From the NCBI GenBank assembly GCA_963755715.1, contig CAVWLW010000032.1:105991-169990 (forward strand): a stretch of DNA of 64,000 nt. Direction: 5' to 3'. Source of the DNA: an uncultured delta proteobacterium (GTDB lineage: Bacteria > Desulfobacterota > Binatia > UBA9968). Position 1 is the first letter of the stretch. Every line of letters begins with the position of its first letter. A program made the position numbers and the translations under genes. Of this stretch, positions 22,884-50,578 are shown one piece after another. The notes beneath the pieces are model-generated. The model saw nothing but the letters and a program-made list of their open reading frames with translations, did no database searches and was not told the origin of the DNA.

Positions 22884-23933
22884 TCACCGCTGGCTGATTT
22901 CTTTGGCGAGGCGTTCCCACTTGTCGGTGTCATGCTCAAATTGTTCGAGAGAGCGACCGAATCCAGGATGCCAGCGCTTGAACGGCATTTCATTCGACGG
23001 ATGACCATACTGGAATTTTTCCAGTATTTTGCGAGAGCTCGAGCCGAGAAGGAAATCGACGAAAAGAGCGGCTGCGTGCGGGTGCGGTGGTTGCGCGGCC
23101 AAGGCGACGCATCCTGAATTCGTCGGCACCAACTCCATCGGCACCCAGGCGACCGCCGAGCCGCGTTCGGCCGAGACCATGGCGTGATTGCGGTAAATGT
23201 GAAACGACGCGCCGAGCTCGCCTGAAGCCATCAGGTCGACCAGCGCAGCACTGCTCACCGTATAAACCCGGATATCTTGAGCTTTGAGTTTTTTGACGAA
23301 CTCTTCGCCTTTAATCTTGATCATCGCGCCGATCATGCGCGCCGAGCTTTCGTTGAGGGTGATGCTCATTTTCCCTTTGAGCTGCGGGTGAAGCAGCCCA
23401 TCGAAGCCTTTCGGCACCGCGCTCGCCGGAATTTGTTCTTTGCTGTAGCCGAAACCCATATAAGACTCGCGAAAGATGGTCCAGAAGGTGAGCCCCTTGT
23501 CGGCTTTCTCTTTGGCTTCGCTTGGATAATTTACCAGGGCCGGCGAATCGTACGGGCGCGTGAGCGCGTTTGTCCGCGCCACCATCATGAAATCGTAAGT
23601 GGTTTCCAGGACGTCGAAGGTCGGACGGCGCGCTTTGGCTTCTTCCGACATGCGCGGCATCAGCTCGCTGCCGCCGGCGCGAAAAACTTCGACGCGCACG
23701 CCGGGATATTTCGTTTCGAAGGCGCGCGCCAGGGCTTTGTACGAGTCACCTGCCAGAGATGTGTACCAGGTAGCGACGCCTTCTGTTTTTGCTCCCGCAT
23801 GGAGTAATTGTTCGCGGTCCGCGCCCATGTAGGCGGCGATTTCCGCGACCGTCGCGGGCTTACGCGATTGCGCCGCCAGCAGCGTGGGGATAGTCAGCAA
23901 TACTGATAACAAGATCGCTTGCAGCCATCTCAT
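22884..23933 (-). CDS. ABC substrate-binding protein, Fe3+/AfuA-like class
   Basis: Signal peptide; GAKTEG..WYTS, FETKYPGV, PHPHAAALFVDFLL. Confidence 0.85.
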   Translation of the reverse strand: MRWLQAILLSVLLTIPTLLAAQSRKPATVAEIAAYMGADREQLLHAGAKTEGVATWYTSLAGDSYKALARAFETKYPGVRVEVFRAGGSELMPRMSEEAKARRPTFDVLETTYDFMMVARTNALTRPYDSPALVNYPSEAKEKADKGLTFWTIFRESYMGFGYSKEQIPASAVPKGFDGLLHPQLKGKMSITLNESSARMIGAMIKIKGEEFVKKLKAQDIRVYTVSSAALVDLMASGELGASFHIYRNHAMVSAERGSAVAWVPMELVPTNSGCVALAAQPPHPHAAALFVDFLLGSSSRKILEKFQYGHPSNEMPFKRWHPGFGRSLEQFEHDTDKWERLAKEISQR

Positions 23934-23994
23934 CTTTACGGCTCTCCCGATAGAGAAAAGTTCATGGACGATCCGTCTCGCGCGGCGGCTTTGC

Positions 23995-25089
23995 TCATCC
24001 GCCTTTACGGCTGATTTCTTTTAGAAGTCTTTCCCAGCCTTCCAGTTGTTTCTCGTATTTGTCCGTGGCAATCCCGTGGTCCGGGCGCCAGCGTTTAAAG
24101 CCCAAGTTTTTGGCGGCGCTGCCGTATTCGTATTTTTCCAGCACTGCTTGGCCTTCCGGTCCGAGAAGATAATCGGCCAAGAGCAGGGCGGCGTGCGGAT
24201 GCGGCGGCTGCACGGCGATGGCCGCGCCGCCGACATTGGTCGGCACGATGTCCATCGGCACCCAATCCACCGGCGCGCCTTTAGCGATGGCGTTGAGCGT
24301 GTGATTGCGAAAGATGGCGGGCGAGGCGAGAACTTCACCCGAGGCGATCAGATCGAGCAGAGCCGGCGGAATGATCGTGTGCAACGCGATCTCTTGCGCC
24401 TTGAGCTTTTTGACCAGCTCCACGCCTCTGGTGCTGATCATCGCGCCGATGACTTTGTAAGCCGGATCGCTGACCGACACGCCCATGCGGGCTTTCAGCG
24501 CCGGATGGAGCAGCCCTTCATAATTTTTTGGCACGGCGCTTTTAGGAAGCAGTTTGGTATTATAAGCGAAGCCAATGTAGGACTCGCGCGCGATCGCCCA
24601 GAAATACAAACCTCTTTCGCCTTTTTCTTTAGCGTCTTCCGGATAGGACGCAAAATGCGGCGAGAAATAGGGACGCAAAAGAAAAGCGTCTCGCATAAAC
24701 ATCAGATTGCCTTCGGTGGTTTCCACCGCGTCGGCGATATATTTTTTGGCTTTCGATTCTTCGTACATACGCGCGGTCATGTCGGAGCCCGAAACTCGAT
24801 AGGCTTCGACTTTCACGCCGGGGTATTTAGTTTCGAAGGCTTTGACCATGCCTTTGTAGGATTCGCCGGCGAGCGATGTGTACCAAGTGAGCTTGCCCTC
24901 GCTCTTCGCTCCTGAGTAGAGCAACTGTTCTCGATCAGCGCCGCTATAGGTGGCGATCTCCGTAATCGTCATCGGTTTGCGGCCTTGTACCCAGGCCTCC
25001 GAGGGCAACAGGAACAGCAAGCAAAGCACGAGATCTAGAATCAGCATTTTTGCTTTGCTGCCGTTTTGTTTAGTAAGATGACCTTTCAT
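23995..25089 (-). CDS. ABC substrate-binding protein, Fe3+/AfuA-like class (tandem paralog)
   Basis: GAKSEGKLTWYTS, FETKYPGV, PHPHAALLLADYLL. Confidence 0.85.
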   Translation of the reverse strand: MKGHLTKQNGSKAKMLILDLVLCLLFLLPSEAWVQGRKPMTITEIATYSGADREQLLYSGAKSEGKLTWYTSLAGESYKGMVKAFETKYPGVKVEAYRVSGSDMTARMYEESKAKKYIADAVETTEGNLMFMRDAFLLRPYFSPHFASYPEDAKEKGERGLYFWAIARESYIGFAYNTKLLPKSAVPKNYEGLLHPALKARMGVSVSDPAYKVIGAMISTRGVELVKKLKAQEIALHTIIPPALLDLIASGEVLASPAIFRNHTLNAIAKGAPVDWVPMDIVPTNVGGAAIAVQPPHPHAALLLADYLLGPEGQAVLEKYEYGSAAKNLGFKRWRPDHGIATDKYEKQLEGWERLLKEISRKGG

Positions 25090-25205
25090 TTCTGGGCAAT
25101 CTCCTTGGCTAGTTTCTCCCACTTGATACCGTCTTTTTCAAATTGCTTCAGCATTCTTACCGAAGCCAGGATGGCGGCGCTTGAATCATATTCATTCGAT
25201 GATCC
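25086..25205 (-). pseudogene. 3'-end stub of a third AfuA-like SBP gene
   Basis: Reads ~FKRRHPGFG..QFEKDGIKWEKLAKEIAQK* versus FKRWHPGFGRSLEQFEHDTDKWERLAKEISQR* of 22884..23933. Confidence 0.8.
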
Positions 25206-25569
25206 GATGGAGTCCAATTGATAACCGGTACGGAACTATCGCCCGATACCACGGCCAAACAAATACTGTCAACGAGCAGTGCACAAAGCGTTACCCAGCC
25301 TTCTCTATAACCAATTCTTCACCGTTAATTCTCCGATTCGTCATCCATTGTTAAACTCGGCCGAGTAGTTCCATGCTGTCGCGCATTCTTCCCAAGGCTT
25401 AATCTTTTTCTCAAGCGCGATTGGAGCGCCCTTTTGTGGGGTTACGAGCAACACCCATTTGGGGTTTGACGGAGCGTCTTCGTTGTTGGTATTGCGGCTC
25501 TGGATAGTGGCAGTGGGTGCAAGAGGGGAAAACTGGCTTCCAAACATAGGATTACCAAGGAGGTGCTCT

Positions 25570-26169
25570 ATGAAGAAATTACGAATGTTAATTGTTGTTG
25601 TGGCTGGCCTTTTGGCCACAGCTACCTTGGCCCGCGGTGAGACCTTGAACGCCACGCTGACGGGCTATGAGGAGTCGCCGTCGGTATCCACAGTCGCCAA
25701 CGGGGATTTCAGCGCGATCATTGAAAACAATGGTGCCGCTGACCACTTCCACTATACCCTGACGTACAGTGGGCTGCAGGGGACGGTGTCACAGAGCCAC
25801 ATCCACATTGCCCAACCCGGCGTGAACGGCAGCATCGTTATCTGGCTATGCCAGACGGGCACGAATAAGGATCCTACCGGCCTTTCCCCTCAGTGCCCTC
25901 AAGAGGGGACCGTGACTGGGAGGATCACGGCCGCAAACGTCATAGCCGGGTCCACGACAACCCAGCAACTCAATGCTGGTGACTTTGCCGGGGCCATAGC
26001 CGCCATCCGGGCCGGCTTTGCTTACGCGAACGTACACACGCTTCCCCTCTCGCCGGGCGGTGAGATCCGCGGGCAGATCGACGCACATCGGCAAATAGTG
26101 ACTTCGATAGCGACGACGGAAGGTCGACAACTGAGGCAGACAACATCGGAAGATGATCGGTGCCGCTGA
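25570..26169 (+). CDS. Secreted CHRD-domain protein
   Basis: Signal peptide; LTGYEESP, SHIH, YANVHT...PGGEIRGQI; AGGAGG RBS. Confidence 0.88.
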   Translation: MKKLRMLIVVVAGLLATATLARGETLNATLTGYEESPSVSTVANGDFSAIIENNGAADHFHYTLTYSGLQGTVSQSHIHIAQPGVNGSIVIWLCQTGTNKDPTGLSPQCPQEGTVTGRITAANVIAGSTTTQQLNAGDFAGAIAAIRAGFAYANVHTLPLSPGGEIRGQIDAHRQIVTSIATTEGRQLRQTTSEDDRCR

Positions 26170-26256
26170 ATAACAAGCGTGTGCAGGCATAACTCAACGG
26201 CACGCATAAATGGCTAGTGCGCAGAGCCTGCGAAGCTGCGCCCATGTCCTCCCGCG

Positions 26257-26500
26257 TTATCTATTCGCTTGTTCGATGTACTCACGCAAAAACGAGATTA
26301 CTTCCGGGCGGTGTCTGAGAGGCGGGCTGGAATAGGCGTTCTCCCGCTTCACCGACTTCAAAGCGCGGCTGAAAACGCATGGCGGTGGTCGCGTCCTGGA
26401 GGAAGTCCTGATCCCGTGACAAGGCGTCGAAAGCCTTTCGCAATATGCTAATCGACTCCGCCGGCGCCTTCGGCGGCAACAGCGCCATTCGTGTCATGCT
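26257..26500 (-). pseudogene. Diverged 3'-end copy of the tctC-like gene (30541..31635)
   Basis: MTRMALLPPKAPAESISILRKAFDALSRDQDFLQDATTAMRFQPRFEVGEAGERLFQ...EVISFLREYIEQANR*. Confidence 0.9.
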
Positions 26501-26798
26501 GTCAGCAAAAACTAGTCTTGCGAGCGATAGCTTCCAGGTATCGGACCGGTGTAGCGGGTTTGCATCGATTTTAACGCCCGGCGCGGCCATTGCCATCATT
26601 TCGCCACTTTGATAAACGCTTCTGCTCTAATTGACGCTGTCAGGCACGGTACCGGAGTTTGCCGTTTTACGGTCATTTCGCCTGCGCGCGAATATCCGCG
26701 AAAGGAGGGGGAAAATATGTAATGCAAGACGAATGGCGATTTGACACTAGCCGCTTCATTCACAGCCGAAACATGCCACGTAACTCGGAGGACAAACT

Positions 26799-28174
26799 AT
26801 GAGGTCACAATCGATTTCTATAAAAGTTTTCCTGCTGTTTACGGTTATCTTATTTCCACTTGCGCCTAAATTTGCCCCAGGCGGCTTGCAAAGCGTCTTG
26901 GCTTGGGGAGACGATGACAATGATAGGCGATCGTTCCCGCAGAAGGCCACGTTCACGACTCTGATCACCACTCCACGCGCCCTTGAGGGGTTGACCGGAG
27001 ACAATCATGGTAATCTGTACACCGGCGGTTCGGTCACCGTCGCCACTACCCCCATCACCCCCTGCCCTATTTGGAAAATCAATATCAACAATCCCGCTCT
27101 GGTGGAGGTTGGGAAAATTACGCCCAATGCATCTCCCTTCACTTGCGGCTTCGCTGGCATTGCTTTGAATGACATCGGCGATGTGTTTGTCGCGGACGGA
27201 GCCGGGGCAAGAATATTCAGCTTTACACCGAATAGCGGCAGTCCGCCGACCGTGAGCGTGCCATATGCCATCGGTACTCCGGGCGCCAACGGTCTTGCCT
27301 TTGACGAGAAGGGAAACCTGTGGGCCAGCGATGGGGTTACCGGTCAGGGAAGGGTTTGGAAAATCACCGGGCCCGGAGCCAACTGCACTGCCCCGCCCGC
27401 TGTTATAAACTGCGAAGAGGTTTTTCGTATCCAGCCGATGTCGAATGAAGTGAATCTCGTGGCCGGCGTGGGCGGAGTTGGGCGTGACGTCCGCGACTTG
27501 CCGCCTGGTGTTATAATAGTGACACCAACAACTCGCAATGCGGCACTAACACCGTCTGTCCAGCACCCTTCACTACTCCCTGTGCTCTCGGCTCCCAACC
27601 CCTGGTTGCGAACGGTTTAGCCTTCAATAAGAAGGGCGATCTTTTCAATATCGACACCGCTCGGGGAGCGCTTTGGAAGATTGAATTCGATCGGCATGGA
27701 AACCTCAAGAGTCCGACCGGCTGCGATACCACATTCACGGCAAACACGCTGTGTCTCAGCAATATCTTTGTCGCTCATCCGATTCTCGAGGGCGGCGACG
27801 GCATAGCCCTCGATCGCGAGGAAAATATCTGGGTCGATGCCAATGAGCGGAATGCGGTGGCGGTGGTTACCAGAGAGGGGAAAGTCTTTGAAATTTTCCG
27901 CAACCCGGTCAACTTACCGAAGCCTGTCGGATTTGGAGTCGGATTGAGGAACGCAGGTGACCAAAATGGTGTGGGAAACGATCACATTCTTGAATTCCCA
28001 ACGAGCCCATTTCTTACCGGAAAGGTATTTTGCACATCTATGTCTGACGGCAACCGGCGCGACAACTCCCCAAATACGGGCGGAGAGATTGTGCCGGGCT
28101 CAGCGATTCTAGGTAAGATCTCCTGCATGGATCAGGAATTAAAAATTCCCGGTCTGCCGCTACCTGTTCGGTAG
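26799..28174 (+). CDS. Secreted SMP-30/gluconolactonase-like beta-propeller protein (one base missing near 27545)
   Basis: Signal peptide; repeated ANGLAFD, ANGLAFN and GDGIALD blades; after the shift the frame continues to the stop at 28174. Confidence 0.75.
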
Positions 28175-28191
28175 AGTCGTCAGCCGCGATG

Positions 28192-28219
28192 GAGTCTCCT
28201 GGGACCGACCAGGAGACTC
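28192..28219 (+). terminator. Stem-loop after the beta-propeller gene
   Basis: GAGTCTCCTGG-gaccga-CCAGGAGACTC perfect 11-bp stem; weak U-tract. Confidence 0.55.
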
Positions 28220-28332
28220 ACTGCGCTTTGCTGAAATTCACCGCTTCGACCGACTTTTAGTAATGCCTTCATTCAATCACTGCGGCTCTGATTCTCAGTG
28301 TTCTGTTCGTAGAGAAATATTTCGACCTCTTA

Positions 28333-28408
28333 GTCATACCCGAGGGTTTCAGTCGGGCGTCCAGTCAGAGTTTCGTCTGGATTCCCGCTTCAAGCATGCG
28401 GGAATGAC
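28333..28408. repeat. REP-like palindrome (GTCAT...ATGAC class)
   Basis: GTCATACCCG...TCCAG...CTGGATTCCCGC...GCGGGAATGAC. Confidence 0.7.
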
Positions 28409-28561
28409 GGAATAACAGAAAAATCGTCACATGTGGATCTGTTCTGCGTGAACTTACACCCCGGATTTCGGGCTGCGGAAGTTTAGCGTTTCTTTGATAG
28501 CCATTTCGGCCCGGCGATCGGTCCGCGCTGTCTAATATTACCGATAGAGAGTGTGAGCCGC

Positions 28562-28690
28562 CTACTTATTCGCGTCTTCGATGTACTTGCGAAGAAAAGC
28601 TATGACCTCGGGCGATGTCTGCGAGGCGCGCTGGAACAAGCGCTCGCCGGCTTCGGGCATGGCACCAGTTTTCGGTGGCGTAACAGCAAA
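28562..28690 (-). pseudogene. Second 3'-end copy of the tctC-like gene, containing a 51-bp perfect repeat
   Basis: EAGERLFQRASQTSPEVIAFLRKYIEDANK*; 28605-28655 is identical to 30584-30634. Confidence 0.9.
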
Positions 28691-28841
28691 TTTCCGATCA
28701 CGCTTATGACTCTCCTCGCATCAATTCCATTTCGTTGGTATTGATTAGCGATCCAAAGCTAGGCGGGTCCGGCTGGTAAAGCACTGTAACCGTGCCCTGA
28801 AGAGCCCATAGTGAACAACCGCAGCTAATCGCCGCTGGTAG

Positions 28842-30476
28842 ATGAGTCCTGAAGAAAAGTCACGAAGAAGAAAGCAAGCGCGCAAGTCTGGTAACCCGCC
28901 GGATCAGCCGACGGCGACACTTTCAAAGGCGCTGACGGTCACACTGGCGATCGCAATTCTGGCGCTAGCGCTCGCGGTCCGCCTGTACAGCATTAATAGC
29001 GCCCCTCTTTGGCACGATGAAGCCTATACGCTTCTCGCGGCCGAGTTGCCTCCCGCGCAAATCGTCGATCTTCTGAAGCACGATTCGGGGCCTCCTCTGT
29101 ATTATTTTTTGCTGCACTATTGGGTCTCTTTGTTTGAAGAGAGCGAGCTTGCCGTTCGCTCGCTATCGACTCTCTTCAGCATACTGTTGATTGCAGGAAT
29201 ATTTTGGGCGGGTCAACGTTTGTACTCGACTGAGGCAGGTCTTCTTGCCGCATTGATCGCGGCGACTTCCCCGATACAGATTCATTATTCCCAGCAGGTG
29301 CGGATGTATACCCTTTTGCCGCTTGTTTCGCTGGCTTCGATCTATTTCCTGGTCCGATATCTTCAGACTTCCCAGCGAAGATATATCGCCCTGTGCGCCG
29401 TGGCGACAATATTATGTTTGTACACCCATTCGTTTACTTTTTTCCTCCTTCCTGTTCACCTTACGCTGATTCTTTTTGAAGGCGGCCGGCAAAAAAGATG
29501 GAAGGACCTGGCGGTCATGTATGCGGTGGTGGGCTTCAGTTATCTGCCGTGGCTGCCGGTTTTCCTTTTGCAATTGAAAAACAAGGATCCGATCGCCTGG
29601 TTCAGTCTTTTCTGGCAAGACTGGGGCCCGTTGGAAGCGGTTGCCTGGACGTTGAGTTCCTTCTCGCCCGGCGGGGCGCAGCCGCCGATTGTCGACGGGT
29701 TCAATGTGCCGGCGTTTGGCCGGGTCGGCCCGGCGTGCTTTTTTGGTGTCTTAGTTGTTGCCGGCGTTGCCCATCTGATCAAGACTCGATGGAGCAGAGA
29801 TCGGTTGGGCGCGCTCTGTTTCTCGGCCTACATGATCGTCCCGCTCGCTTGTTCGGTGATTTCTTCGGTTTTGATCAGCCCGAACTATCTTGCGGGTCGC
29901 GTCGACCAAATGGTGTTTCCGGCATTCTGTGTGATCGCGGCTCTGGGAATCTGTGCTGTTCCCTCTTGGAATTTGAGATGGCCAATGGTCGGCACCATGC
30001 TAATTTTGTCAGCTCTGACGTTGCAACAATTCTACGGCCGCGATTTTGCCTGGGGCGCGCGGGAGGTCAGCGACTTCATCAGTGCGCGCATTCAATCCGG
30101 GGATCCCATTGTTTGCACCGGTTTGACCCGCACGTCGCTGACCTATTACATGCGCCGCCACGGCGGGCGAGCGAAAATGTTTTCTTATCCCCGCGATACC
30201 GCCCAGCACCTCGGCTACCAAAACAACATCAATCTCTTGGAAAATCCCGACTATCTCGCCGCCGAGGCGCAGGGAATTATTAATGATATGCGATCCGCCA
30301 GTGCTCCAGGCGGTCGTTTCTTCGTCGTGTTGGGATATGCCTTGATGGTCAATAAACCGTTGTGGGAAAAGCTATCTGCCACCGCCGACTTGGAACTGCT
30401 CGAGCCTCCGTCGTACGTGGGTCCTCAGAACGGCAACAATGGCGTGGTGGTGTTGCGATATCAATTCAAGAAATAG
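28842..30476 (+). CDS. GT39/ArnT-PMT-like membrane glycosyltransferase (GT-C fold)
   Basis: LWHDEAY, PPLYYFLLHYW, VRSLS, YSQQVRMY; polytopic. Confidence 0.85.
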   Translation: MSPEEKSRRRKQARKSGNPPDQPTATLSKALTVTLAIAILALALAVRLYSINSAPLWHDEAYTLLAAELPPAQIVDLLKHDSGPPLYYFLLHYWVSLFEESELAVRSLSTLFSILLIAGIFWAGQRLYSTEAGLLAALIAATSPIQIHYSQQVRMYTLLPLVSLASIYFLVRYLQTSQRRYIALCAVATILCLYTHSFTFFLLPVHLTLILFEGGRQKRWKDLAVMYAVVGFSYLPWLPVFLLQLKNKDPIAWFSLFWQDWGPLEAVAWTLSSFSPGGAQPPIVDGFNVPAFGRVGPACFFGVLVVAGVAHLIKTRWSRDRLGALCFSAYMIVPLACSVISSVLISPNYLAGRVDQMVFPAFCVIAALGICAVPSWNLRWPMVGTMLILSALTLQQFYGRDFAWGAREVSDFISARIQSGDPIVCTGLTRTSLTYYMRRHGGRAKMFSYPRDTAQHLGYQNNINLLENPDYLAAEAQGIINDMRSASAPGGRFFVVLGYALMVNKPLWEKLSATADLELLEPPSYVGPQNGNNGVVVLRYQFKK

Positions 30477-30540
30477 AATCTTCCATTGCGATTCCGATGA
30501 TCGTTCTTGAATAACGCCAATCAGAAATTCGATCGACGAT

Positions 30541-31635
30541 TTACTTGTTTGCCTCTTCGATATACTTGCGGAGAAAATTAACCACCTCGGGCGATGTCTG
30601 CGAGGCGCGCTGGAACAAGCGCTCGCCGGCTTCGCCGACTTCGAAGCGCGGTTGAAAGCGCATCGCAGTGATCGCTTCTTGCAAGAAATCCTGATCGCGT
30701 GACAGCCCGTCGAAGGCTTTGCGCAGAATCGCGATGGTTTCCGGCGGCGCTTTCGGCGGCATTAAAACCATCCGCGTCATGTTGGTGCTCGACATATTCG
30801 CCGCTTTGAGCGCTTCGTATTTGATCCCCGACGGCGGCTTGCCAAAAACTTCTTTGTAATAAAAGGTGAACGGCAGAAGCTCCGGCACGTCGCGGCTGAC
30901 CAAGATTTCGCCGCTCGGCGCAACCAGGTCCGTGTAATAGATCGGCACGACCATGCCGGTCTTGACCATCTGCGGCTCCACTTGGGTGCGGTAACTGGGA
31001 AGAGTTTCATCGTGATATTGCGCTTCGCCGCGCTGCACGGCGAGACGCGCGTCGGAGCTGTTGTTGTAGCCGGTGACGTAATCGTATTTGAGTCCGAGGA
31101 TATCGAACGACAAGCGAAAGCGAACGTCTTTGGAGCTGCTCACGCCGAGACCGGCGGCGCGAAACTTTTGCGCCTTGACGAAATCCGAGGGCTTCTTGAT
31201 GCCCGGTGGAACATCGGCGCGGATGTAAGAGACGGTGACGCCGTGCACGCCGGTGATAAAGCCGAATTTGCCGATATCGACGCGCAGAGCGGGATCTTTA
31301 ATCTGATGCTGAAAAAGCGCGCCGGTGAAATAGGCCGCCGTAAATCCGTCAGCCTTAGCAACCTCGCCGATGTAGTTCACCGCCGTGAGACCACCGCCGC
31401 CGCCCATGGCTTGAACCGTGACCGTGGGGTTTCCTGGAATGTGGCGGGGGAGATGCTTAGCAAAAATCCTACTCTCGATATCTGTCGGGCCGCCGGCGGC
31501 GAAGTTGATGACGACGTTGAGAGTCTTGCCTTGATAGAAGGGACTCTTTTCGGCCGCGTAGGCCGTCGTCCAAAGCGCGGCCAACGATAAATAGTTAAAC
31601 GCAAGAAAGCAACGTCGCCAACGTTTTCCTTTCAT
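30541..31635 (-). CDS. Tripartite tricarboxylate transporter substrate-binding protein (TctC/Bug)
   Basis: FYQGKT..VINFAAGGPTD, HIPGNP, MGGGGG, AVQRGE. Confidence 0.85.
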   Translation of the reverse strand: MKGKRWRRCFLAFNYLSLAALWTTAYAAEKSPFYQGKTLNVVINFAAGGPTDIESRIFAKHLPRHIPGNPTVTVQAMGGGGGLTAVNYIGEVAKADGFTAAYFTGALFQHQIKDPALRVDIGKFGFITGVHGVTVSYIRADVPPGIKKPSDFVKAQKFRAAGLGVSSSKDVRFRLSFDILGLKYDYVTGYNNSSDARLAVQRGEAQYHDETLPSYRTQVEPQMVKTGMVVPIYYTDLVAPSGEILVSRDVPELLPFTFYYKEVFGKPPSGIKYEALKAANMSSTNMTRMVLMPPKAPPETIAILRKAFDGLSRDQDFLQEAITAMRFQPRFEVGEAGERLFQRASQTSPEVVNFLRKYIEEANK

Positions 31636-31928
31636 TACTTCTCCTTTCGGCTCGATGAGCAACGGCAGGAATCTTACAGAGCTGATTTTTAGGTCGACGT
31701 CAGTTAATCCGCTTCGCTTTCCAAAAACAAACTTTTGTCTCGCCGCTGTTCATACTCCATCCGCCACCTCTTTGTCCAATCGGGTTTTTATAAATTTTAC
31801 TGGCCACGCGATTGTCGTGATGCACTAGTTTGCCTGGTCTCTAATTGAACAGACCAAAGCCAGCGATCGGCTTGAAGCGGCACGATTGGGAACGAAGCCC
31901 GCTGCGAGATGGTAGAATAACTGGCAAA

Positions 31929-32042: not shown

Positions 32043-33056
32043 CTACAAGCCGAAGATTTGTCGAAACTCGCGGGCGTAGTCGTCGAAATGAAGGTAGACG
32101 TCTTTAGGAACGGCCTTTAGCTTTAGTTTGGTTTGATCCATTTTGGGCGCCAGGGGCTCGATGTCGCTGCGCGCGGGAATGCGGCGCATGCCGCGCACCA
32201 TCTGCTGGCCTTTTTTCGACGTGGCGAAGTCGATCAGCAGTTTGGCGGAATTTGGATTGGCGGCCTTTGCGCTCAAGCCTATGCCGCTCACGGTGGCGAC
32301 GATGGGATCGAAGGTTTCGACCCAGTCTACGGGCGCTCCTTCGCTTTTCATGCGCTCGGCGCGAAAGTTATAGGCCCAAGCCAGCGGCACCTCGCCGGCG
32401 CCGAGCAGTTGCGCCGTCAGGCCGTGACCGCGCCGCCACAACGGGTTCTGCGCCGCTAAACGTCTCATGTACTGAACGGTTTTTTCTTTGCCCCAGACCG
32501 TCGCCAACGTGCCGAACCAGTCGTAGTCCGTGGAGTCCATCAACATCTTGTCCTTCCACTTCGGGTCGAGCAGGTCCGGATAATTTTTCGGCGCGTCTTT
32601 GGCGCCAATCATTTTGGTGTTGTAGCAGAGCACCAGATTATTGACGAAGATGCCGGTCCAGTAGCCTTGCGGATCTTTGAACTCGCTGAGAAAAGCGTCT
32701 CTTTCCGGAGTCAGATAAGGCGCGACCATATGCCGGTCCGCCACCACCGACATGGCGGCGGTGGAAATCGCGTCGAACAACCAACGGCCGGCGCGGGTTT
32801 CGCTCAAGACCCGATTCATCAACTGCTCTTCGCCGGCGCGCACGAGCTCGGCTTTGATGAACGGGTAGTCCTTCTGAAAGGCGTCGAGCAACGGCTTCGA
32901 CGTGTCGATCGCCATCGAAGTGTACCAGACGAGCTTGCCTTCTTTTTTTGCGCCTTCGATTAAAGCGGCATGGGACGGAGTTTGTGCGTTAAGGTTGCCG
33001 GTCAGCAACACACTGATGAGAACCGATGAAACGAGAAAACGGAAATGAGTTTTCAT
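32043..33056 (-). CDS. ABC substrate-binding protein, Fe3+/AfuA-like class
   Basis: [32 protein letters not shown]. Confidence 0.85.
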
Positions 33057-33142
33057 TCTAGTCCTCGCGATTGCATGCCGGTCGAGGATGGCGAGGAGCG
33101 AAGATCGCGATCATCTATCATCGATCCTCTATCCTCGCGATT

Positions 33143-34264
33143 CTAAGCTCTCGGATAAAGCGCATCCATCATCAATTTCTTATGGTGTCCGGGCGTGCCC
33201 AGATACTGATAAAGCGTATGCGCGAGCACGCTGTGCGCCATCATCGGATGGCTGTAATCGGTTCCCGGTCCGGCCCAGACCATGTGGGCGTAATTCGTCC
33301 CATGATAGTAGCCGTCGCTGGCCGTCGCTTTCGCTTCGTGAGCCCCGGCGCGAGCGTCCAGGCCGCTGTCGATGCGCCAGATCGCTTCGTAAGTCGCCCA
33401 GCGCGCCATATCGAGATTGATCGAAATATCGACGCAGTGATCCTGCACGCGCTGAAAACGGCCGATCGGCTGTCCGAAGACGACGCGGGTGCGCGTGTAC
33501 TCGCAGGTGATGTCGAAGACTTCCTGGGTGGCGCCGACTTGATAGGCGGAGAGGATCGGCAGCGACTTGTCCAGCGCGGCTTCCAGCGTCGCCCAGCTCG
33601 CGCCGCTCGATCCGAGGAAATCCAAAGGCGAAACGGCGACATGATCGAAGCGCACTTCGGCGACGGAGACGAAAAATCCGACGTGCGGCGTGATCGTCAC
33701 GCCGGGACTTTTGGCGTTGACGAGGAGAAACACCACTTTGCCTTCCTCCGTGCGCGCGGCGCAAAGAAAGTTCGTGGCGGCTTCGGCGTCGAAGACGAAG
33801 CGCTTGGTGCCGTTCATCACGTAGCCGCCGGGAGTTTTCGACAGACGCGTCTCGACCGCTTCCGCTCCCCAGTACGCCGCCTTATCGGTGATGGCGGGCA
33901 CGACGATCGACGAGCCATCGCAAATCTTCGGCAGCAACATTCGTCTTTGCTCTTCGGTGCAGGCTTCGAAAATCATCTGCGCACTGAGCACGCCCGAGGT
34001 AAAAAGCGGGCCGGGGACAGGGCCGTGCCCCAGCGCTTCAAACACGACGGCGCAATCCATCGTCGACACGCCGGCGCCGCCGTACTCTTCCGGCAACATC
34101 ATGCCGAGCCAGCCGATCTCGGCAGCTTTCTTGAGCAGCTGCGGCCGGAAGGTCTGCTTGTTTTTGTACCACTGCGTCATCTGATGCGCGGGCACTTCCG
34201 CTTTGACGAAGTCCTCCGCCACTTTTTTAAATTCTTCTTGGGTTTCGGTAAGTGCTAAGTCCAT
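33143..34264 (-). CDS. Acyl-CoA dehydrogenase (probable non-catalytic partner)
   Basis: GWLGMMLPEEYGG, NGTKRFV, RVVFGQPIGRFQRVQ. Confidence 0.88.
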   Translation of the reverse strand: MDLALTETQEEFKKVAEDFVKAEVPAHQMTQWYKNKQTFRPQLLKKAAEIGWLGMMLPEEYGGAGVSTMDCAVVFEALGHGPVPGPLFTSGVLSAQMIFEACTEEQRRMLLPKICDGSSIVVPAITDKAAYWGAEAVETRLSKTPGGYVMNGTKRFVFDAEAATNFLCAARTEEGKVVFLLVNAKSPGVTITPHVGFFVSVAEVRFDHVAVSPLDFLGSSGASWATLEAALDKSLPILSAYQVGATQEVFDITCEYTRTRVVFGQPIGRFQRVQDHCVDISINLDMARWATYEAIWRIDSGLDARAGAHEAKATASDGYYHGTNYAHMVWAGPGTDYSHPMMAHSVLAHTLYQYLGTPGHHKKLMMDALYPRA

Positions 34265-34318
34265 GTGCAACTCCTTTGCGGCAGGCAATAGGCAACAGGC
34301 AATAGTTCGGAGCCTTGC

Positions 34319-35533
34319 TTAGTCTGTTTCTGGCGCTTTTTCCGTCGTCGGGCGGCCGAGGCCGAGGCGACGGGCGAAAATTAGTCTGTCAGTGTCCAGG
34401 GTGCCGCCGCCGTGCAACTGGCCTGGGCCGGTGCGCACAGCGTATTCGAAATCGATCACTTCGTGCACGGACAGGTTTTGTTCGAGAGCATCCGCCCCCA
34501 TGATCGCTTGCAAGCGCTCGCCGTTGCGCAGGCGCAGCATGCGCTGATAGTAGCGCTGCTGCGGGCCGCCGTAGGGATGCGGTTTCTTGGCGAAGCGGCG
34601 CCAGTAAATGAGCTGGTTGAAGCGCCGCAGAGTATTCAACTCGATGGTCATCTCGGCGATCAGGTCGCGCACGCGCGGATCTTCGATGATCGGTTTGCCG
34701 TCGATGTGCGTGCTGCGGCAGTACTCGACGACGCGCTCGATCAGCGGATCCACTGCGATGCGGCCGTCGCCGCCGTGCTCGAGCTCCATGTGGGTGCTGG
34801 CGACTTTCCAGCCGTTGTTCTCGCCGCCAATCAAATACTTCGCCGGCACGCGCACGTTGTCGAAGAACACCGCGTTCTTGATGCCCATCATCAAGTTCAT
34901 GTGCTGGATGGTGACACCGGGAAGATTCGCGGGGATGTGCAGCCAGGCGAGGTTCTCATGGCGCTTGCCTTGCGGATTGGTGCACACCAGCGTCCACAAA
35001 TAATCCGGCGGCAGATGGTGGCCGACCATGACCTTTTGGCCGTTGACGAGGTAGTCATCGCCGTCGCGTAGCGCTTTGGTTTGACAATTCGCAATGTCGC
35101 TGCCGCCGTGCGGCTCGGTGAGCACCTGCCAAACGCAAATCTCCGCTTTTGTGATCGGCGGTAAAAATTCCGCTTTCTGTTCGTCGGTACCCCAGCGGAT
35201 CAACACCGGCGCGACGATGCGCGCCAGAGTGTAGAACACATGGGACAGATTGAGTCCGTACTTGAAGAGCTCGGTGTCGAGCACCACCTGATGATCGACC
35301 GTGAGATCGGCTCCGCCGTACTTTTTAGGAAAAAGCGGAAACAGCCAGCCCTTCTTTCCCAGCTTTTCGGCCAGGCCGCGGCGAAATTTATATTCGTCTG
35401 CGTCCTCGCGCGTCGACCACGACGCCGACCAGCGCAGGTGCTCGTGGCCTTTGAACTCTTCGGCCATCCAAGCGGCGACCTCTTTTCTAAAATCCACTAC
35501 GTGCGGTGGATCGGCGCTAACGTTAAAATCCAT
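34319..35533 (-). CDS. Acyl-CoA dehydrogenase (probable catalytic subunit)
   Basis: TEPHGGSD, VNGQKV, FFDNVRVP, GENNGW, MELEH, GGT. Confidence 0.88.
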   Translation of the reverse strand: MDFNVSADPPHVVDFRKEVAAWMAEEFKGHEHLRWSASWSTREDADEYKFRRGLAEKLGKKGWLFPLFPKKYGGADLTVDHQVVLDTELFKYGLNLSHVFYTLARIVAPVLIRWGTDEQKAEFLPPITKAEICVWQVLTEPHGGSDIANCQTKALRDGDDYLVNGQKVMVGHHLPPDYLWTLVCTNPQGKRHENLAWLHIPANLPGVTIQHMNLMMGIKNAVFFDNVRVPAKYLIGGENNGWKVASTHMELEHGGDGRIAVDPLIERVVEYCRSTHIDGKPIIEDPRVRDLIAEMTIELNTLRRFNQLIYWRRFAKKPHPYGGPQQRYYQRMLRLRNGERLQAIMGADALEQNLSVHEVIDFEYAVRTGPGQLHGGGTLDTDRLIFARRLGLGRPTTEKAPETD

Positions 35534-35626: not shown

Positions 35627-36808
35627 TCATATCACTCCACTCGCTCTCAATTCTTTCACTGCGTCGATGTCGTAGCCCAAGTTCGCCAAAACTTGTTCCG
35701 TGTGTTCGCCCAAGAGCGGCGCCGCGCGAAAAAATTTCGGCGGTGTGTCCGACAGGTTGATCGGGCTGCCGACCAAATTGCTCATGCCCATCTTCGGATG
35801 GCTGATTTGTTTCGGAATCCCGAGATGTTTGATCTGCGGGTTGTCAAAGACTTCAGCAATCGTGTTGATTGGCGCATTAGGGATTTGGTTGGCATCGAGA
35901 CGAGCCAGCCAATATTCGCGCGCCTTTGTGCGGAACTGAGCGCGCAGCATATTCACGATCTCTTCATGCCGGTCGGTGCGATGTTTGTTCGATGCGAAGC
36001 GCGGATCACCGACCAAACCATCGAGCTCGCCGGCTCTCAAGAAATCTTCCCAAGCTTGGTTATGGGAGGAAAGATGAACCATGAAGGGTTTGCCTTCGCA
36101 ATCGAGCAGGCTGTAAATGCGTCCCTTGGGAAAATTTTCCCGCGATACCGCTTCGCCGCCGTTCAAGTAATCAGCGACGTGGGACTCGATGAAGGCGATC
36201 GCCACTTGCAGCAGCGACACGTCGATGAACTGGCCGCGTTCGGTTTTCGCCCGCGCGAAGAGCGCCGCCATGATGCCGTGTGCGGCGAAAATCCCGGCGG
36301 AATGATCGACGAAAGAGACACCGGCCACTTTGGGATCGTCGAGGTCGGTGACCAGGCTCATCATGCCGCTGAGCGCTTGGCCGATCGTATCGAAGCCCGG
36401 CTTGTCGCGGTAGGGTCCGCTCTGGCCGTAGCCGGAGATCGAGCAGTGAATCAGTTTGGGATTGAGTTTTGAAAGTTCTTCGTAGTCGAGGCCGAGTTTG
36501 GCTCGAGTCGGCGGACGAAAGTTTTCAAGGAAAATATCCGCCGTCGCCAAAAGCTTGCGTAAAATTTCGCCGCCTTTTTTGTGCCGCAGATCGATGGTAA
36601 CGCTTCTTTTATTACGGTTGAGCGCGCGAAAGCTCGGGCCGTAGCCTTCATATTTGGGATTGCGCCCCCGGTGCGTGTCGCCGCCGTTGGGCAATTCGAC
36701 TTTGATTACGTCGCAGCCGAGGTCGCCGAGGAGGCTGCTCGCATAGGGGCCGGCCACGTGGCCGCTGACGTCGATACAAGTATAACCTTCGAGAGCTCCG
36801 GAAATCAT
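35627..36808 (-). CDS. Family III CoA-transferase (CaiB/BaiF)
   Basis: AGPY, LGCDVIKVE, NRNKRS, ENFRP, SGYGQSGPY, catalytic Asp in FVDHSAG. Confidence 0.92.
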   Translation of the reverse strand: MISGALEGYTCIDVSGHVAGPYASSLLGDLGCDVIKVELPNGGDTHRGRNPKYEGYGPSFRALNRNKRSVTIDLRHKKGGEILRKLLATADIFLENFRPPTRAKLGLDYEELSKLNPKLIHCSISGYGQSGPYRDKPGFDTIGQALSGMMSLVTDLDDPKVAGVSFVDHSAGIFAAHGIMAALFARAKTERGQFIDVSLLQVAIAFIESHVADYLNGGEAVSRENFPKGRIYSLLDCEGKPFMVHLSSHNQAWEDFLRAGELDGLVGDPRFASNKHRTDRHEEIVNMLRAQFRTKAREYWLARLDANQIPNAPINTIAEVFDNPQIKHLGIPKQISHPKMGMSNLVGSPINLSDTPPKFFRAAPLLGEHTEQVLANLGYDIDAVKELRASGVI

Positions 36809-36964
36809 GCGCGCTTCAAATCCTCAATACAGGTTTCATTTATCGCAATCAAAAAAGGTTTTCTACAGTTTGGCGAGTTGACCGCCCGAGCTATAAAATT
36901 TGTTGAGCAACTTCGTCATATATGCAACTGTGTCGGCGACTGCTGCCCATTCAGGAGGATTCCC

Positions 36965-37687
36965 ATGCGTTATGAACTATACTATCAACCGTCGATCCAA
37001 GGCCGCGGCGAGTTTGTTCGCCTTTCACTAGAAGATGCCGGCGCGGATTACCTCGACGTCGCGCGCGATCCTAACTTCGGCCGTCCCGGGATCGTGAAAT
37101 TCCTCGAAGACCCGTCTTTGGAACATCCACCGTTTGCCCCGCCGTTTCTCAAAGCCGGCAAGCTGCTGATTTCCCAAACCGCCAACATTCTCCAGTTTCT
37201 CGCGCCGCGGCTCGGTCTCGTGCCGAAAAACGAAGCGAGCCGGCTCTGGGCGCATCAGTTGCAACTGACGATTGCCGATTGGCTGTATGAAGCCGGCCAG
37301 ACACACCATCCGATCGCGAACGTCCTCTACTACGAGCAGCAGACGGACGAGGCCAAAAAGCGCGCCGCGCATTTCATCTCAACGCGCATTCCAAAATTTC
37401 TCGGCTATTTTGAAAGAATCCTCAAACAGAACGCCAAAGACAGGGACTTCGTTTTCGGCAAGAAAGTTTGCTACGTCGATCTCTCGCTGTTCCAGATGAT
37501 CGAAGGGTTGCGTTACGCTTTTCCAAAGACAATGGCGCAACTCGAATCGCAATACCCGAGAATGGTCACTTTGCACGATCGCGTCAGGGCGCGTCCGCGC
37601 ATCGCGGCTTATCTCTCTTCACCGCGGCGGCTGGCGTTCAACGAGCAAGGCATTTTCCGCCACTATCCCGAGTTGGAAGAAGGATGA
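36965..37687 (+). CDS. Glutathione S-transferase
   Basis: LYYQPSIQGRGEFVRL, FAPPFL, SQTANIL, YVDLSLFQ; GGAGG RBS. Confidence 0.9.
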   Translation: MRYELYYQPSIQGRGEFVRLSLEDAGADYLDVARDPNFGRPGIVKFLEDPSLEHPPFAPPFLKAGKLLISQTANILQFLAPRLGLVPKNEASRLWAHQLQLTIADWLYEAGQTHHPIANVLYYEQQTDEAKKRAAHFISTRIPKFLGYFERILKQNAKDRDFVFGKKVCYVDLSLFQMIEGLRYAFPKTMAQLESQYPRMVTLHDRVRARPRIAAYLSSPRRLAFNEQGIFRHYPELEEG

Positions 37688-37864: not shown

Positions 37865-38284
37865 TTACTTAGTGGCCGGTTTCTTCTCCGTCACGTCGCC
37901 TTTTTTCTCCGTCGCTTTTTTGGATCCGGCCTTGACCGAGGTGGCGATCATCTTTCCATCCTTCTCGGTGTAGGAAACCCTCACCATATCGCCCACTTTG
38001 ACCTTTTCCAGCGCGTCTTTAGCGCTCTTGGAATCGGCGGCCAGCTTGATCTCTTTGTCATTTCCCTTGACTGCGAATGTGCCCGCCTTCGCGTCCACCG
38101 ACGTGAGCTCACCGGTAATCCGATGGCTCTTCGCCTTCTCGGATTTCGTCTCCGTTTTCTTCTCTGCCGGAGCGGCTGGAGTCGCGGGTGTAGCGGGAGT
38201 AGCCGGTTTCGTCTGCGCGAAGCCGAGAGCGCTGAAACTTAACGTAGTCAAAGCGACAACTAAAATCTTGATCATGTTTTTCAT
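37865..38284 (-). CDS. Small secreted Lys/Ala-rich protein with a probable OB-like domain
   Basis: Signal peptide, (PAT)n linker, ITGELTSVD...VKVGDMVRVSY; AGGAGG RBS. Confidence 0.8.
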   Translation of the reverse strand: MKNMIKILVVALTTLSFSALGFAQTKPATPATPATPAAPAEKKTETKSEKAKSHRITGELTSVDAKAGTFAVKGNDKEIKLAADSKSAKDALEKVKVGDMVRVSYTEKDGKMIATSVKAGSKKATEKKGDVTEKKPATK

Positions 38285-38540
38285 GGTATCACCTCCTTTC
38301 TTTTTGTTAGACTTGGTTGTTAGACGTGATATTTTCAAAATCCCTTCAAATGCTCCTATAGGTAATAAAAATCTCACACGGTAGCTCACTTAGCCAGTTG
38401 TACGCGATATCCGGACATCCGCACCCAGTGAACTTGTGGTGCTCCGATTCCTGGATTCGCACAGCATTATTTAAACATTGTGAGGAAGCGTAGTGCAGAG
38501 TGGTCCTTCAGAAGCGGAGGAATCGCAGCCTAAATTTTTA

Positions 38541-38652
38541 GGCTGCGCAACGCCTTTCCAAAAAAACGACGGCGCGACTCGAACCGCAACACCCGAGGCT
38601 GGCGTTTAAGAGCAAGAAATTTTCCGCCACTATCCTGGGTTGGAAAAGTGAT
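38541..38652 (+). pseudogene. Degraded, internally deleted copy of the GST 3' end
   Basis: Aligns to ~37506-37560 and ~37630-37687; shared ATTTTCCGCCACTATCC at 37652 and 38619. Confidence 0.85.
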
Positions 38653-38782
38653 AGACGCGGAAGAAGAACAAAAAAACGCTGGATCGAGGGGTCGTTCTAA
38701 TCGAAATTAATAAACGCGGTAGGCGGTAGATTGTAAAGGTTGTTATGTCTGATCCTATGAGCCTGCCAGGGTGGTTTGCGGC

Positions 38783-41830: not shown

Positions 41831-41851
41831 TACGCGTAATTCCAACAAGGA

Positions 41852-41876
41852 AGGGCGACCGGCCGGTCGCCCCTAC
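41852..41876 (-). repeat. GTAG-family REP overlapping the Prim-Pol stop codon
   Basis: AGGGCGACCGGCCGGTCGCCCCTAC. Confidence 0.75.
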
Positions 41877-50337: not shown

Positions 50338-50578
50338 TGGACAAACGTCAACTTTTGGAAGTAGAAATCGCGGTGGTAATGCATGTGCGAGGGGGAGAAC
50401 GAGCAAACATGGCTGCCCGCCGAGATTGATGATCTGTTTTATCAGATCGACAAATGAACAAACTACCAGACTTGATCTTTCAGTCTCCCCATAATTTCAG
50501 TGCGGCGAATATTTACGCAAGTAAGGCAAGTCTGATTCGGCAGACCGCCTCTAAGTGCCGGAGAGAGGGGTAACGACC

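Follow-up and report, generated by a model that had tools for sequence, protein, structure and literature searches.

Truncated copies of a Bug-family gene end among accessory genes in an uncultured Binatia bacterium: probable scars of C-terminal displacement

In E. coli, e14 and phage 21 occupy the 3' end of the icd gene in such a manner that the insert brings a substitute gene end and the original end survives beyond the insert as a pseudogene copy; both are kilobases-long prophages that integrate at a fixed att core by means of a tyrosine integrase. The locus reported here resembles e14/icd in that the gene appears to be kept intact by a replacement end, with the old end beyond the insert; however, it has no integrase, its repeats are 93 and 245 nt long and its units hold a single gene each. 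It also resembles an integron, as single-gene units are ordered serially beside a fixed anchor, but it has no IntI, attI or attC, and its units, unlike integron cassettes, are not co-oriented with a common promoter and have their own upstream regions.

The C-terminal displacement model itself has already been proposed for rhs, CDI and T6SS loci, including rhs (Jackson et al. 2009, PMC2935791) and Vibrio T6SS arrays (Kirchberger et al. 2017, PMC5361080). In those arrays, several displaced 3' ends, each 5'-truncated and accompanied by its former neighbour genes, lie in series behind a full-length gene, there is no integrase and the newest unit adjoins the gene; the proposed mechanism is either homologous recombination through circular intermediates or homology-facilitated illegitimate recombination for which the conserved part of the gene is the anchor. 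The tips so displaced encode variable toxin domains, come with cognate immunity genes and are kept by selection. At the present locus, a full-length gene was likewise accompanied by 5'-truncated copies of its end (89% identical for the proximal and 77% for the distal copy). Unlike the rhs/CDI/T6SS tips, the dead ends all specify one conserved C-terminus, that of an ordinary binding protein, the cargo genes are unrelated, on the opposite strand and without toxin-immunity logic, and the pattern reaches housekeeping genes such as thyX.

Restriction-modification units between direct repeats of 46 to ~420 bp, some overlapping gene 3' ends and near-identical to each other (e.g., 44/46 or 417/423), are described by Furuta, Abe and Kobayashi (2010, PMC2853133). 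That case of long target duplication shares with ours direct repeats of >30 bp, the lack of a mobile-element gene and a one-copy empty site in a related genome, whereas the present repeats are 77–89% identical, include one copy of foreign allelic type and end at the stop codon.

Layout of the locus

We analysed a stretch of DNA of 64,000 nt (the window). Its relevant features are as follows, in the direction of the anchor gene.

32043..35533, minus strand: upstream backbone, whose synteny is shared by relatives, with an SBP gene and two genes for acyl-CoA dehydrogenases
30541..31662, minus strand: anchor gene, intact, for a divergent Bug/TctC-family periplasmic solute-binding protein of 373 aa (ORF, BugD similarity)
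30541..30634, minus strand: present 3' terminus of the anchor gene, i.e., the one repeat copy that is part of the complete gene, with its first 50 nt identical to stub B
28842..30476, plus strand: cargo 1, gene for a GT39/PMT_2-type membrane glycosyltransferase of 544 aa, convergent with the anchor gene (PF13231, E = 1e-14)
28656..28841, no strand: DNA upstream of the GT39 gene, reaching the 5' boundary of stub B and without anchor-gene homology in the alignment
28562..28655, minus strand: stub B, 5'-truncated, the last 30 codons and stop codon of a Bug allele (89% identical to the intact end)
28333..28411, no strand: multi-copy repeat element of 79 nt that has inserted into the spacer from stub B to the propeller gene and contains a ATTCCCGC/GCGGGAAT hairpin
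26799..28174, plus strand: cargo 2, gene for a secreted NHL-like propeller protein, split in the present assembly (ORFs, contigs of other samples)
26257..26501, minus strand: stub C, 5'-truncated, the last ~81 codons and stop codon of a different Bug allele (91.7% identical to the gene end of another species, G027)
25570..26169, plus strand: cargo 3 or old neighbour, gene for a secreted CHRD-domain protein (PF07452, E = 2e-20)
22884..25122, minus strand: downstream backbone, tandem SBP_bac-type binding-protein genes SBPa and SBPb, syntenic in relatives

Behind the anchor gene, the order is the GT39 gene, stub B, the propeller-like gene, stub C and the CHRD gene. A 46-nt repeat family has three copies across the locus, spaced by 2305 and 1979 nt. 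Each of the three cargo genes is opposite in strand to the anchor gene and has 186–300 nt of upstream DNA of its own. The initial annotation had read the region as such an array, and ORFs, repeats and blastn recovered its elements at or near the same coordinates; the copy that it extended from 28562 to 28690 is real, but its homology reaches 28655.

The anchor protein was similar to BugD (2f5x) in a comparison with solved structures (E = 6.3e-7, residues 43–191), and six more Bug/TTT binding proteins were among the solved-structure matches at E ≤ 1. It matched no Pfam family at E ≤ 0.01, TctC (PF03401) included, and no NCBIfam family at E ≤ 1. Judged by its sequence, the protein is a divergent member of the Bug/TctC family; the label 'tctC-like' first given to the gene holds for the Bug-family similarity but not for a Pfam assignment. 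A paralog in the window (53453–54490) does match TctC (1.6e-14), and the Bug family is hugely expanded, with 88 matches within the genome. The dN/dS of intact orthologs of the anchor gene was 0.05–0.11, with values of 0.07–0.11 for the anchor gene itself compared with its orthologs. The anchor gene was ~90–98% identical to that of a relative (G021) save at its very end, with 23 differences among 79 positions in the final ~80 nt; the intact gene is mosaic near its end.

Every junction of the array was bridged by independent contigs from four runs of four soil studies: stub B, the GT39 gene and the intact end by X1 record 6 (28626–30613), stub C and the propeller gene by X6 record 25 (26389–27467), the CHRD gene and stub C by X1 record 1, and the repeat element and stub B by X6 record 27. 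Therefore, the array is not a misassembly, as had initially been considered. The same array was found on three metagenome contigs (L085, L090 and L086) at 84–99% identity, i.e., it is stable across lineages that are 84–99% identical. The compared contigs showed neither an excision joint nor an empty-site joint, and rare forms are beyond the reach of contigs. The 79-nt repeat element had many matches of 80–90% in relatives and coincided with a depth peak in contigs.

Ancestry of the two stubs

On balance, we consider the stubs to be probable scars of two successive recombination events, i.e., of C-terminal displacement by host recombination. The comparison of 19 orthologous loci showed that the gene content behind the orthologous gene differs among relatives, and the site is hypervariable across the genus; the invariant cargo that would have spoken against gene gain was not found. 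Each stub with its downstream neighbour was collinear with the arrangement behind the intact gene in other species: the Bug gene adjoins the propeller gene in G029 and G016 and the CHRD gene in G027 and G019. The CHRD gene lies behind the orthologous gene in G027, G019, G012, G017, G029, G003 and G020. G029 and G017 have the order Bug–propeller–CHRD, with no stub separating the last two genes; these two have lost it, or else the present genome (G000) gained stub C by another route. The propeller and CHRD genes are thus common residents of the locus, in some relatives stub-free.

Stub C was 77–78% identical to the intact end of its own genome (197-nt blastn HSP, E = 1e-35, whole genome) and 91.7% identical over 241 nt to the functional 3' end of the G027 gene, compared with a genome background of 74–81%. 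Its dN/dS against G027 was 0.22, and the 1-nt indel that it carries in the present assembly was absent from contigs of three other samples. Positions 25113–26498 aligned contiguously with the CHRD–spacer–Bug end of G027 (76.6%, 1419 nt), and the alignment ended at the 5' edge of stub C. Right beside the stub, identity to G027 dropped to 58–70%, which is hard to fit to any single simple import. In addition, the polarity may be reversed, as either copy may be the incomer. From their sequences, the two stubs and the intact gene appear to be alleles of different ancestry, with stub B closest to the resident end.

It is unlikely, in our view, that a stub is instead a foreign passenger at the non-homologous end of a relative's fragment that was anchored downstream and left the intact gene untouched. 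Such an import agrees with the excess of G027 identity in stub C over the background, with the stub-free order of G029 and G017 as a plausible recipient state and with the CHRD gene of G000, whose nearest counterparts are the copies of G012 and G027. However, identity to G027 does not continue from stub C into the supposed import, and the end of the intact gene is itself mosaic. The DNA around stub B also argues against it, since the downstream spacer and propeller gene are widespread and the GT39 gene is novel, placing the insert on the gene side.

The closest sequence to stub B was the resident intact end (89% over 93 nt at 30542–30634, with a 50-nt identical block; whole-genome blastn, E = 5e-28). 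All differences fell within the last 43 nt (clustering, P = 2e-4): 11 nt in 9 codons, of which three are amino-acid changes that take 5 nt. The copies had first been called mostly synonymous, which for stub B is only half right. The termini IEEANK, IEDANK and IEQANR were confirmed, and the view that the copies are displaced ends of once-intact alleles is borne out by the identity of stub C to the functional G027 end and its dN/dS. The spacer behind stub B aligned to the Bug–propeller spacer of G029 (197 of 249 positions identical, 79%, z = 10). The GT39 unit sits between 93-nt repeats, and G029 has Bug–spacer–propeller with one repeat copy.

The GT39 gene had no DNA match among the matches listed for 60 other genomes (30 from the genus), and its protein had relatives of ≤31% amino-acid identity in 3 of 40 family genomes. 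GT39 relatives of 81% nucleotide identity share the gene alone (28825–30481), in other contexts. A donor arrangement, with an intact Bug gene followed directly by GT39, was not found outside the present clade. Among the three cargo genes, only GT39 looks newly acquired.

The propeller gene has two ORFs in the present assembly (26799–27620 and 27857–28174) and is a single ORF of 458 codons with an extra T after 27546, as in the contigs of other samples; its ortholog is intact in G017 (416 aa). The evidence for the fold is weak (NHL Pfam E = 0.0011, below the cut-off; TRIM3 NHL in PDB, E = 0.008). The CHRD ORF runs from 25459, with a probable start and signal peptide at 25570.

Simple decay of full-length tandem paralogs, with the stubs as their remains, is a very improbable origin. 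The size of the family is in keeping with it, and in two relatives (G003 and G004) the ortholog is directly followed by a complete tandem paralog, Bug2. However, the stubs are of the ortholog type (Bug1), with 57–63% identity to Bug2 in a multiple alignment and matches of only 13–58 nt in pairwise local alignment, and stub C shares 92% identity with a gene of the orthologous set. The DNA downstream of each stub is what follows a single intact gene elsewhere, and decay leaves the genome-wide excess of stop-bounded 3' ends unexplained. Tandem-paralog decay, named at the outset as one case against displacement, thus failed to match the stubs.

Gene-tail copies across the genome

In a genome-wide, ORF-based survey, 25 of 120 local parent/stub repeat pairs ended ≤7 nt from a stop codon, against 2.5 expected (binomial, 8e-18), and three ended at ORF starts; uncertainty in the ORF starts makes this 3'-over-5' bias in part an artefact of counting. 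Stop-bounded stubs were found near ~23 other ORFs of the genome, downstream of 17 of them, and identity within the 25 pairs was at most 96.5%. Stubs of thyX were present in 4 of 16 genomes (four species); all end at the stop codon with differing 5' ends, and they are independent. The occurrence of scars at many unrelated genes suggests a general by-product of recombination and not a dedicated system.

These data bear on a further alternative, in which cargo inserted into the gene tail with in-situ duplication of a 93–245 nt target and later divergence of the copies, and which we regard as decidedly unlikely. The unit is flanked by direct repeats of >30 bp without a mobile gene, and relatives have a single-copy 'empty' state. 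The proximity of stub B to the resident end means that in-situ duplication, or later gene conversion, also fits, and the first thyX stub (s1) of G000 is likewise closest to its own gene (95%). However, stub C resembles the gene of another species much more than the resident one, the stop-bounded pairs never exceed the above identity, an end of homology ≤7 nt from the stop in 25 pairs is not predicted by random staggered duplication and the differences in stub B are clustered.

None of the 51 ORFs of the window had a recombinase or integrase domain, and the nearest mobile gene was a DDE transposase (58998–60449). The genome has 13 tyrosine-recombinase (PF00589) matches, none on contig C32 and none on a contig that holds one of the 23 parent ORFs with stop-bounded stubs, and the genome gave no serine-recombinase match; the initial annotation was right that none is nearby. 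The three copies had no homology past the stop codon. The locus had no Rfam match at E ≤ 1 and no tRNA, and no hairpin was common to the junctions, which had only small unrelated hairpins.

It is highly doubtful that small integrative elements accumulated in tandem at an att site within the gene 3' end, as for e14 or phage 21 in icd, with an integrase since lost or acting in trans, given the lack of an integrase in the window and on contig C32 and the 0 of 23 similar loci sharing a contig with a tyrosine-recombinase match. Direct repeats of a gene 3' end around inserted DNA are its classic signature, and the survey also caught a tRNA 3'-half repeat 3.6 kb from its tRNA; against these stand single-gene units without a shared core beyond coding sequence and the same cargo without repeats in relatives. 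The repeats of 93 and 245 nt have no common att extent.

A dedicated, recombinase-independent, integron-like platform that docks at the gene's 3' end is barely credible. Serial units with one opposite-strand envelope or secreted gene each would fit it, as would the recurrence of break points ~93–98 nt before the stop, in stub B, in the stub of G003 and in the mosaic of G000 and G021. However, the units have no conserved site, structure or protein in common, the array is unchanged at 84–99% and the same scars occur at unrelated genes. The original proposal of integron-like capture does not stand: a recombinase is lacking, the junctions share neither a site nor a hairpin, the cassettes have no common orientation and the stubs differ in length; its framing as gene capture is further weakened by the residency of the propeller and CHRD genes. 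Nothing points to a dedicated capture system.

Proposed route of displacement and its meaning

In C-terminal displacement, the incoming DNA would consist of a replacement gene end and a different downstream gene, spliced into the tail of the resident gene, and the old gene end would remain as a dead stub. Homologous anchoring would be through the conserved coding sequence, with the far end joined illegitimately inside the resident tail; the event type would thus be homology-facilitated illegitimate recombination. The same product would also arise if a circularised fragment entered by a single crossover. The genome has NHEJ genes, namely LigD within the window and three Ku genes. We infer that the propeller unit came first and the GT39 unit last. 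The stubs would persist as neutral direct repeats, so that gene conversion or loop-out of cargo would be possible.

More tentatively, the last codons of ordinary conserved genes might be reusable, recombinase-free docking points for accessory genes in this soil genus and perhaps widely in uncultured prokaryotes: incoming DNA with its own copy of the tail would be joined by host recombination (RecA and Ku/LigD, possibly via small circles), and the old tails would be stacked downstream. If so, C-terminal displacement would be a general route of accessory-gene gain, well past polymorphic toxin loci, and the stubs would be a readable record of successive acquisitions as well as substrates for cassette loss and re-mobilisation.

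Layout and reality of the array

The window lies on a 170-kb contig of the genome under study (G000), which belongs to an uncultured soil bacterium and comprises 7.4 Mb in 76 contigs. The array lies behind a divergent Bug/TctC-like solute-binding-protein gene (the Bug gene), and its elements are listed below in the direction of that gene.

Elements of the array
30541-31662 (-): intact Bug gene (anchor), an ORF of 373 aa
28842-30476: PMT_2/GT39-type gene, convergent with the Bug gene, first element downstream
28562-28655: stub B, the last 30 codons and stop of the Bug gene (93 nt), 89% identical
28333-28411: multi-copy 79-nt hairpin repeat, next downstream after stub B
26799-28174: secreted NHL-like (propeller) gene, convergent with the Bug gene
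26257-26501: stub C, the last ~81 codons of the Bug gene (245 nt), 77% identical
to 25570: CHRD gene, convergent with the Bug gene, last element of the array

The Bug protein had no match in Pfam or NCBIfam and showed similarity to Bug/TctC binding proteins of solved structure (BugD, E=6e-7); its family had 88 matches within G000. The best whole-genome nucleotide matches to the 3' end of the gene were stub B (E=5e-28) and stub C (E=1e-35). The closest full paralog showed 59% protein identity, and its DNA-level match was undetectable in the 3'-end part. In all three copies, i.e., the intact end and both stubs, homology ended at the stop codon. GC content showed no sharp island edge, at 0.50-0.60 over the array and 0.56-0.64 in the flanks.

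We assessed the array in public sequencing runs. The stretch was present in 20 of the 24 runs listed (10 studies), every junction was bridged by contigs at 95% identity or higher (four runs, four studies), and the same array was found in three metagenome contigs at 84-99% identity. Misassembly was ruled out by the bridging contigs of independent runs. The positions, identities and bridging contigs thus confirmed repeated 3' ends of a tctC-like gene with interleaved cargo, as the initial annotation had described. An extra base that breaks the frame of stub C (26312) was absent from the contigs of other samples, and in the propeller gene these contigs had an additional base (27546), with which the gene is a single 458-codon ORF. 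Because both frame breaks occurred only in the G000 assembly, they are probably strain or assembly indels. Among the contigs examined, which drop rare variants, no excision or empty-site joint was found across the GT39 unit. As a separate observation, the CHRD 3' end and the spacer to stub C (26080-26240) were hypervariable even inside the species; 85 nt (26107-26191) were swapped for 68 other letters in contigs of three runs, with several indels nearby.

The 79-nt repeat forms a ATTCCCGC...GCGGGAAT hairpin and looks like a MITE/REP-type element. It had no Rfam match. Copies 80-90% identical occurred in most relatives, at many sites, at least two further copies were present in G000, and the repeat coincided with a depth peak in soil contigs.

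Ancestry of the stubs and of the intact end

We compared the stubs and the DNA behind them with the same gene in related genomes. Window 25113-26498 aligned without a break to the CHRD gene, spacer and Bug 3' end of the relative G027, and the alignment stopped at the 5' edge of stub C. Once the 79-nt repeat was taken out, the spacer that follows stub B aligned with the Bug-propeller spacer of another relative, G029 (308 vs 304 nt; z=10 against shuffles; 197 of 249 aligned columns identical), whereas the spacers behind the intact end and stub C did not. These alignments indicate that each stub, together with the DNA that follows it, is an arrangement found today behind the intact gene in other species.

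In pairwise local alignments, stub C was 91.7% identical over 241 nt to the functional gene end of G027, compared with 78% to the resident gene and at most 80% to all other orthologs over comparable lengths. The background identity between G000 and G027 was 74-81% (20 kb of the window). The dN/dS of stub C against G027 was 0.22, and that of intact orthologs was 0.05-0.11, values that fit a once-functional allele under relaxed constraint since. The earlier proposal that the copies were once functional alleles is borne out by these figures for stub C. The intact Bug gene was 90-98% identical to that of the relative G021 over most of its length; 23 differences fell in the last 79 positions and 29 in the preceding 321, and this excess indicates that the end of the intact gene is itself mosaic.

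Stub B had its closest match in the resident end (89%). The two were identical over the first 50 nt of the stub, and all differences fell within its final 43 nt (P=2e-4), comprising three amino-acid changes, five synonymous changes and the stop codon. This likeness may reflect in-situ duplication, an insertion accompanied by long target duplication (PMC2853133), or it may reflect later gene conversion.

A stub in the relative G003 started at most about 9 nt from the start of stub B, with unrelated flanks. Taken with the mosaic boundary against G021, it suggests that breaks recur some 93-98 nt ahead of the Bug stop. The three break points, namely the start of stub B, the start of the G003 stub and the G000/G021 identity drop, lay ~80-98 nt ahead of the stop (window 30634-30640 / 28655; 5370-5380 of L058, the G003 stretch). 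The tandem CGAAGYCGG CGAAGCCGG motif, at which both stubs started, is a possible hot spot of recombination.

Relatives and the search for dedicated machinery

We examined 19 loci in 18 related genomes holding the Bug ortholog (Bug1 type) or its paralog Bug2. The conserved backbone consisted of two acyl-CoA dehydrogenase genes, usually a solute-binding-protein (SBP) gene, the Bug gene and an SBP gene array. The gene content directly behind the Bug gene differed between relatives, so the cargo behind the orthologous gene, whose comparison the initial annotation had called for, was not invariant.

Gene content directly behind the Bug gene in relatives
Nothing, SBP array directly next: G022, G008, G013, G005, G006, G033, G024
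CHRD: G027, G019
Propeller: G016 (contig ends)
Propeller, then CHRD: G029
230-aa gene, propeller, then CHRD: G017
Two other secreted-protein genes, then CHRD: G012
406-aa gene: G021 (contig ends)
3193-aa gene: G014
Tandem paralog Bug2: G004
Bug2, Bug1-type stub, 378-aa gene, then CHRD: G003

At both G020 loci, a Bug2-type gene alone was present. Among all these loci, the Bug C-terminus had additional partial copies in two genomes only, G000 with two and G003 with one; G029 and G017 had no stub. Bug2 is a full tandem paralog with ~71% aa identity (4090-5472 of L058, on G003:C5; 4158-5189 of L057, a stretch of G004:C9). Derivation of the stubs from decayed Bug2 paralogs was considered and rejected. 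In G003, Bug2 lies between the intact gene and the Bug1-type stub, so that the cargo there is a binding-protein gene. The GT39 gene had no DNA match among the matches listed (60 other genomes searched, 30 of the genus), and its protein was found at no more than 31% identity in three of 40 family genomes. For a donor with an intact Bug gene beside GT39, metagenome contigs gave only the same clade and GT39 relatives in other contexts.

The initial annotation had also stated that no recombinase is nearby, and this held: no integrase or resolvase domain was found among the 51 ORFs of the window, and none of the 13 tyrosine-recombinase matches in G000 was on the contig of the array. Serine recombinases had no match in the genome, and the nearest mobile gene was a DDE transposase 27 kb off. 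Around the array, the tRNA search and Rfam gave no match, and promoter- and terminator-like sites were not more common than in shuffles. The unit boundaries shared no inverted repeat, and the small hairpins at the junctions were unrelated to each other. The analogy with integrons failed in all its defining tests. The original interpretation is partly supported: displacement of gene ends through recombination is likely, and integron-like capture is not supported. LigD ligase and LigD primase-polymerase genes lie side by side 10 kb from the array (40742-43186), and Ku had three matches in G000 (C9:10188, C30:30495, C25:157352); these non-homologous end-joining genes are relevant to illegitimate joining. 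The window-wide Pfam scan also revealed a T6SS Tle1-like phospholipase domain in one ORF (50555-52264), an SRA-HNH nuclease ORF (54754-55443) and the DDE transposase, which is IS4-like (58998-60449).

Stop-bounded gene ends across the genome

We compared each G000 contig with itself (word size 9), keeping lone same-strand matches of 50-500 nt no more than 12 kb apart, and counted pairs with one copy within a long ORF and its partner in no comparable ORF. Among the 120 local parent/stub pairs, the ORF copy ended within 30 nt of the stop in 44 (stub downstream in 33, upstream in 11). For 25 pairs, from 23 ORFs, the distance to the stop was at most 7 nt, compared with 2.5 pairs predicted by uniform placement (binomial 8e-18). 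Only three pairs ended within 7 nt of the ORF start, a count that is too low, since an ORF-based survey places starts with uncertainty. Several of the ORFs with stop-bounded pairs had two stubs each; example loci are C12:2955-10248, C41:87179-97917, C43:15646-26937, C61:22660-24616 and C35:50996-52927. The parent genes were of diverse families (thyX, asparaginase, two MetE-like, O-methyltransferase, amidohydrolase and NMT1-type binding proteins), and the Bug gene was involved in one of the 44 pairs. Parent/stub identities ranged from 68% to 96.5%, none near 100%. The inserts were mostly unique or held ordinary paralogous genes; a repeated mobile element was rejected, as the inserts had no common repeat. 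None of the 23 stop-bounded ORFs had a tyrosine recombinase match on its contig.

Of the 16 genomes of the genus examined for thyX, four carried stubs of its 3' end; G000 and G004 had two each, G014 and G007 one each (G000:C32:35907-45902, compared as L111 with stretches L096-L110). All ended at the stop codon and their 5' truncation points differed, indicating independent events; that is, events at the tail of this essential gene are recurrent and independent. Most were about equally close to their own gene and to the nearest relatives' genes.

Two further repeats were observed. The window has another example of a repeated gene end: the last ~60 nt of a GST_C_3-domain gene (36581-37687, +) are repeated 968 nt downstream (38597-38658, 84%), with an opposite-strand 174-aa ORF (37865-38389) between the copies. 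The survey pairs also included one in C27, where a tRNA 3' half is repeated 3.6 kb downstream (95%, 57 nt; 297034-300729), a classical island signature, and this contig had no tyrosine recombinase match.

C-terminal displacement is the name given to such a structure in rhs genes by Jackson et al. (PMC2935791), and Kirchberger et al. (PMC5361080) account for Vibrio T6SS immunity arrays similarly, via homology-facilitated illegitimate recombination. The structure at the Bug locus is the same, whereas Bug is an ordinary, non-toxin gene. Incoming DNA and the resident gene would have the conserved gene body in common, and the incoming DNA would bring its own gene end and whatever followed that end in the donor. 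Its far end would be joined within the tail of the resident gene, leaving the old tail behind; an identical product would result if a circularised fragment entered by a single crossover. This model accounts for the stub order, the differing stub lengths, the foreign allele in stub C and the mosaic end of the intact gene. Homology would be lost at the stop codon because non-collinear donors and recipients have only coding sequence in common, and the 3' bias may arise from selection against 5' stubs bearing promoters. Taken together, the most likely explanation is that C-terminal displacement occurred serially at an ordinary gene that encodes no toxin; scars of this class are common in G000.

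Most bacterial accessory genes lie in hotspots without mobile-element genes, and their route of arrival is still largely inferred. Stop-bounded tail stubs are physical scars of single insertion events, which show in what order the events took place, which allelic type the gene had before and afterwards, and exactly where the junctions lie. The pattern comprises the Bug locus with its two stubs, some two dozen more G000 genes and independent thyX stubs in four species, and its main value is this genome-wide and cross-species extent. If it is a mere by-product of frequent recombination among non-collinear relatives, it would still provide a useful annotation class, i.e., dead gene ends that are neither small ORFs nor regulatory elements. 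If it is general, it would offer a testable, recombinase-independent mechanism for hotspot formation, and a simple computational marker with which gene gain in uncultured lineages could be dated and traced.
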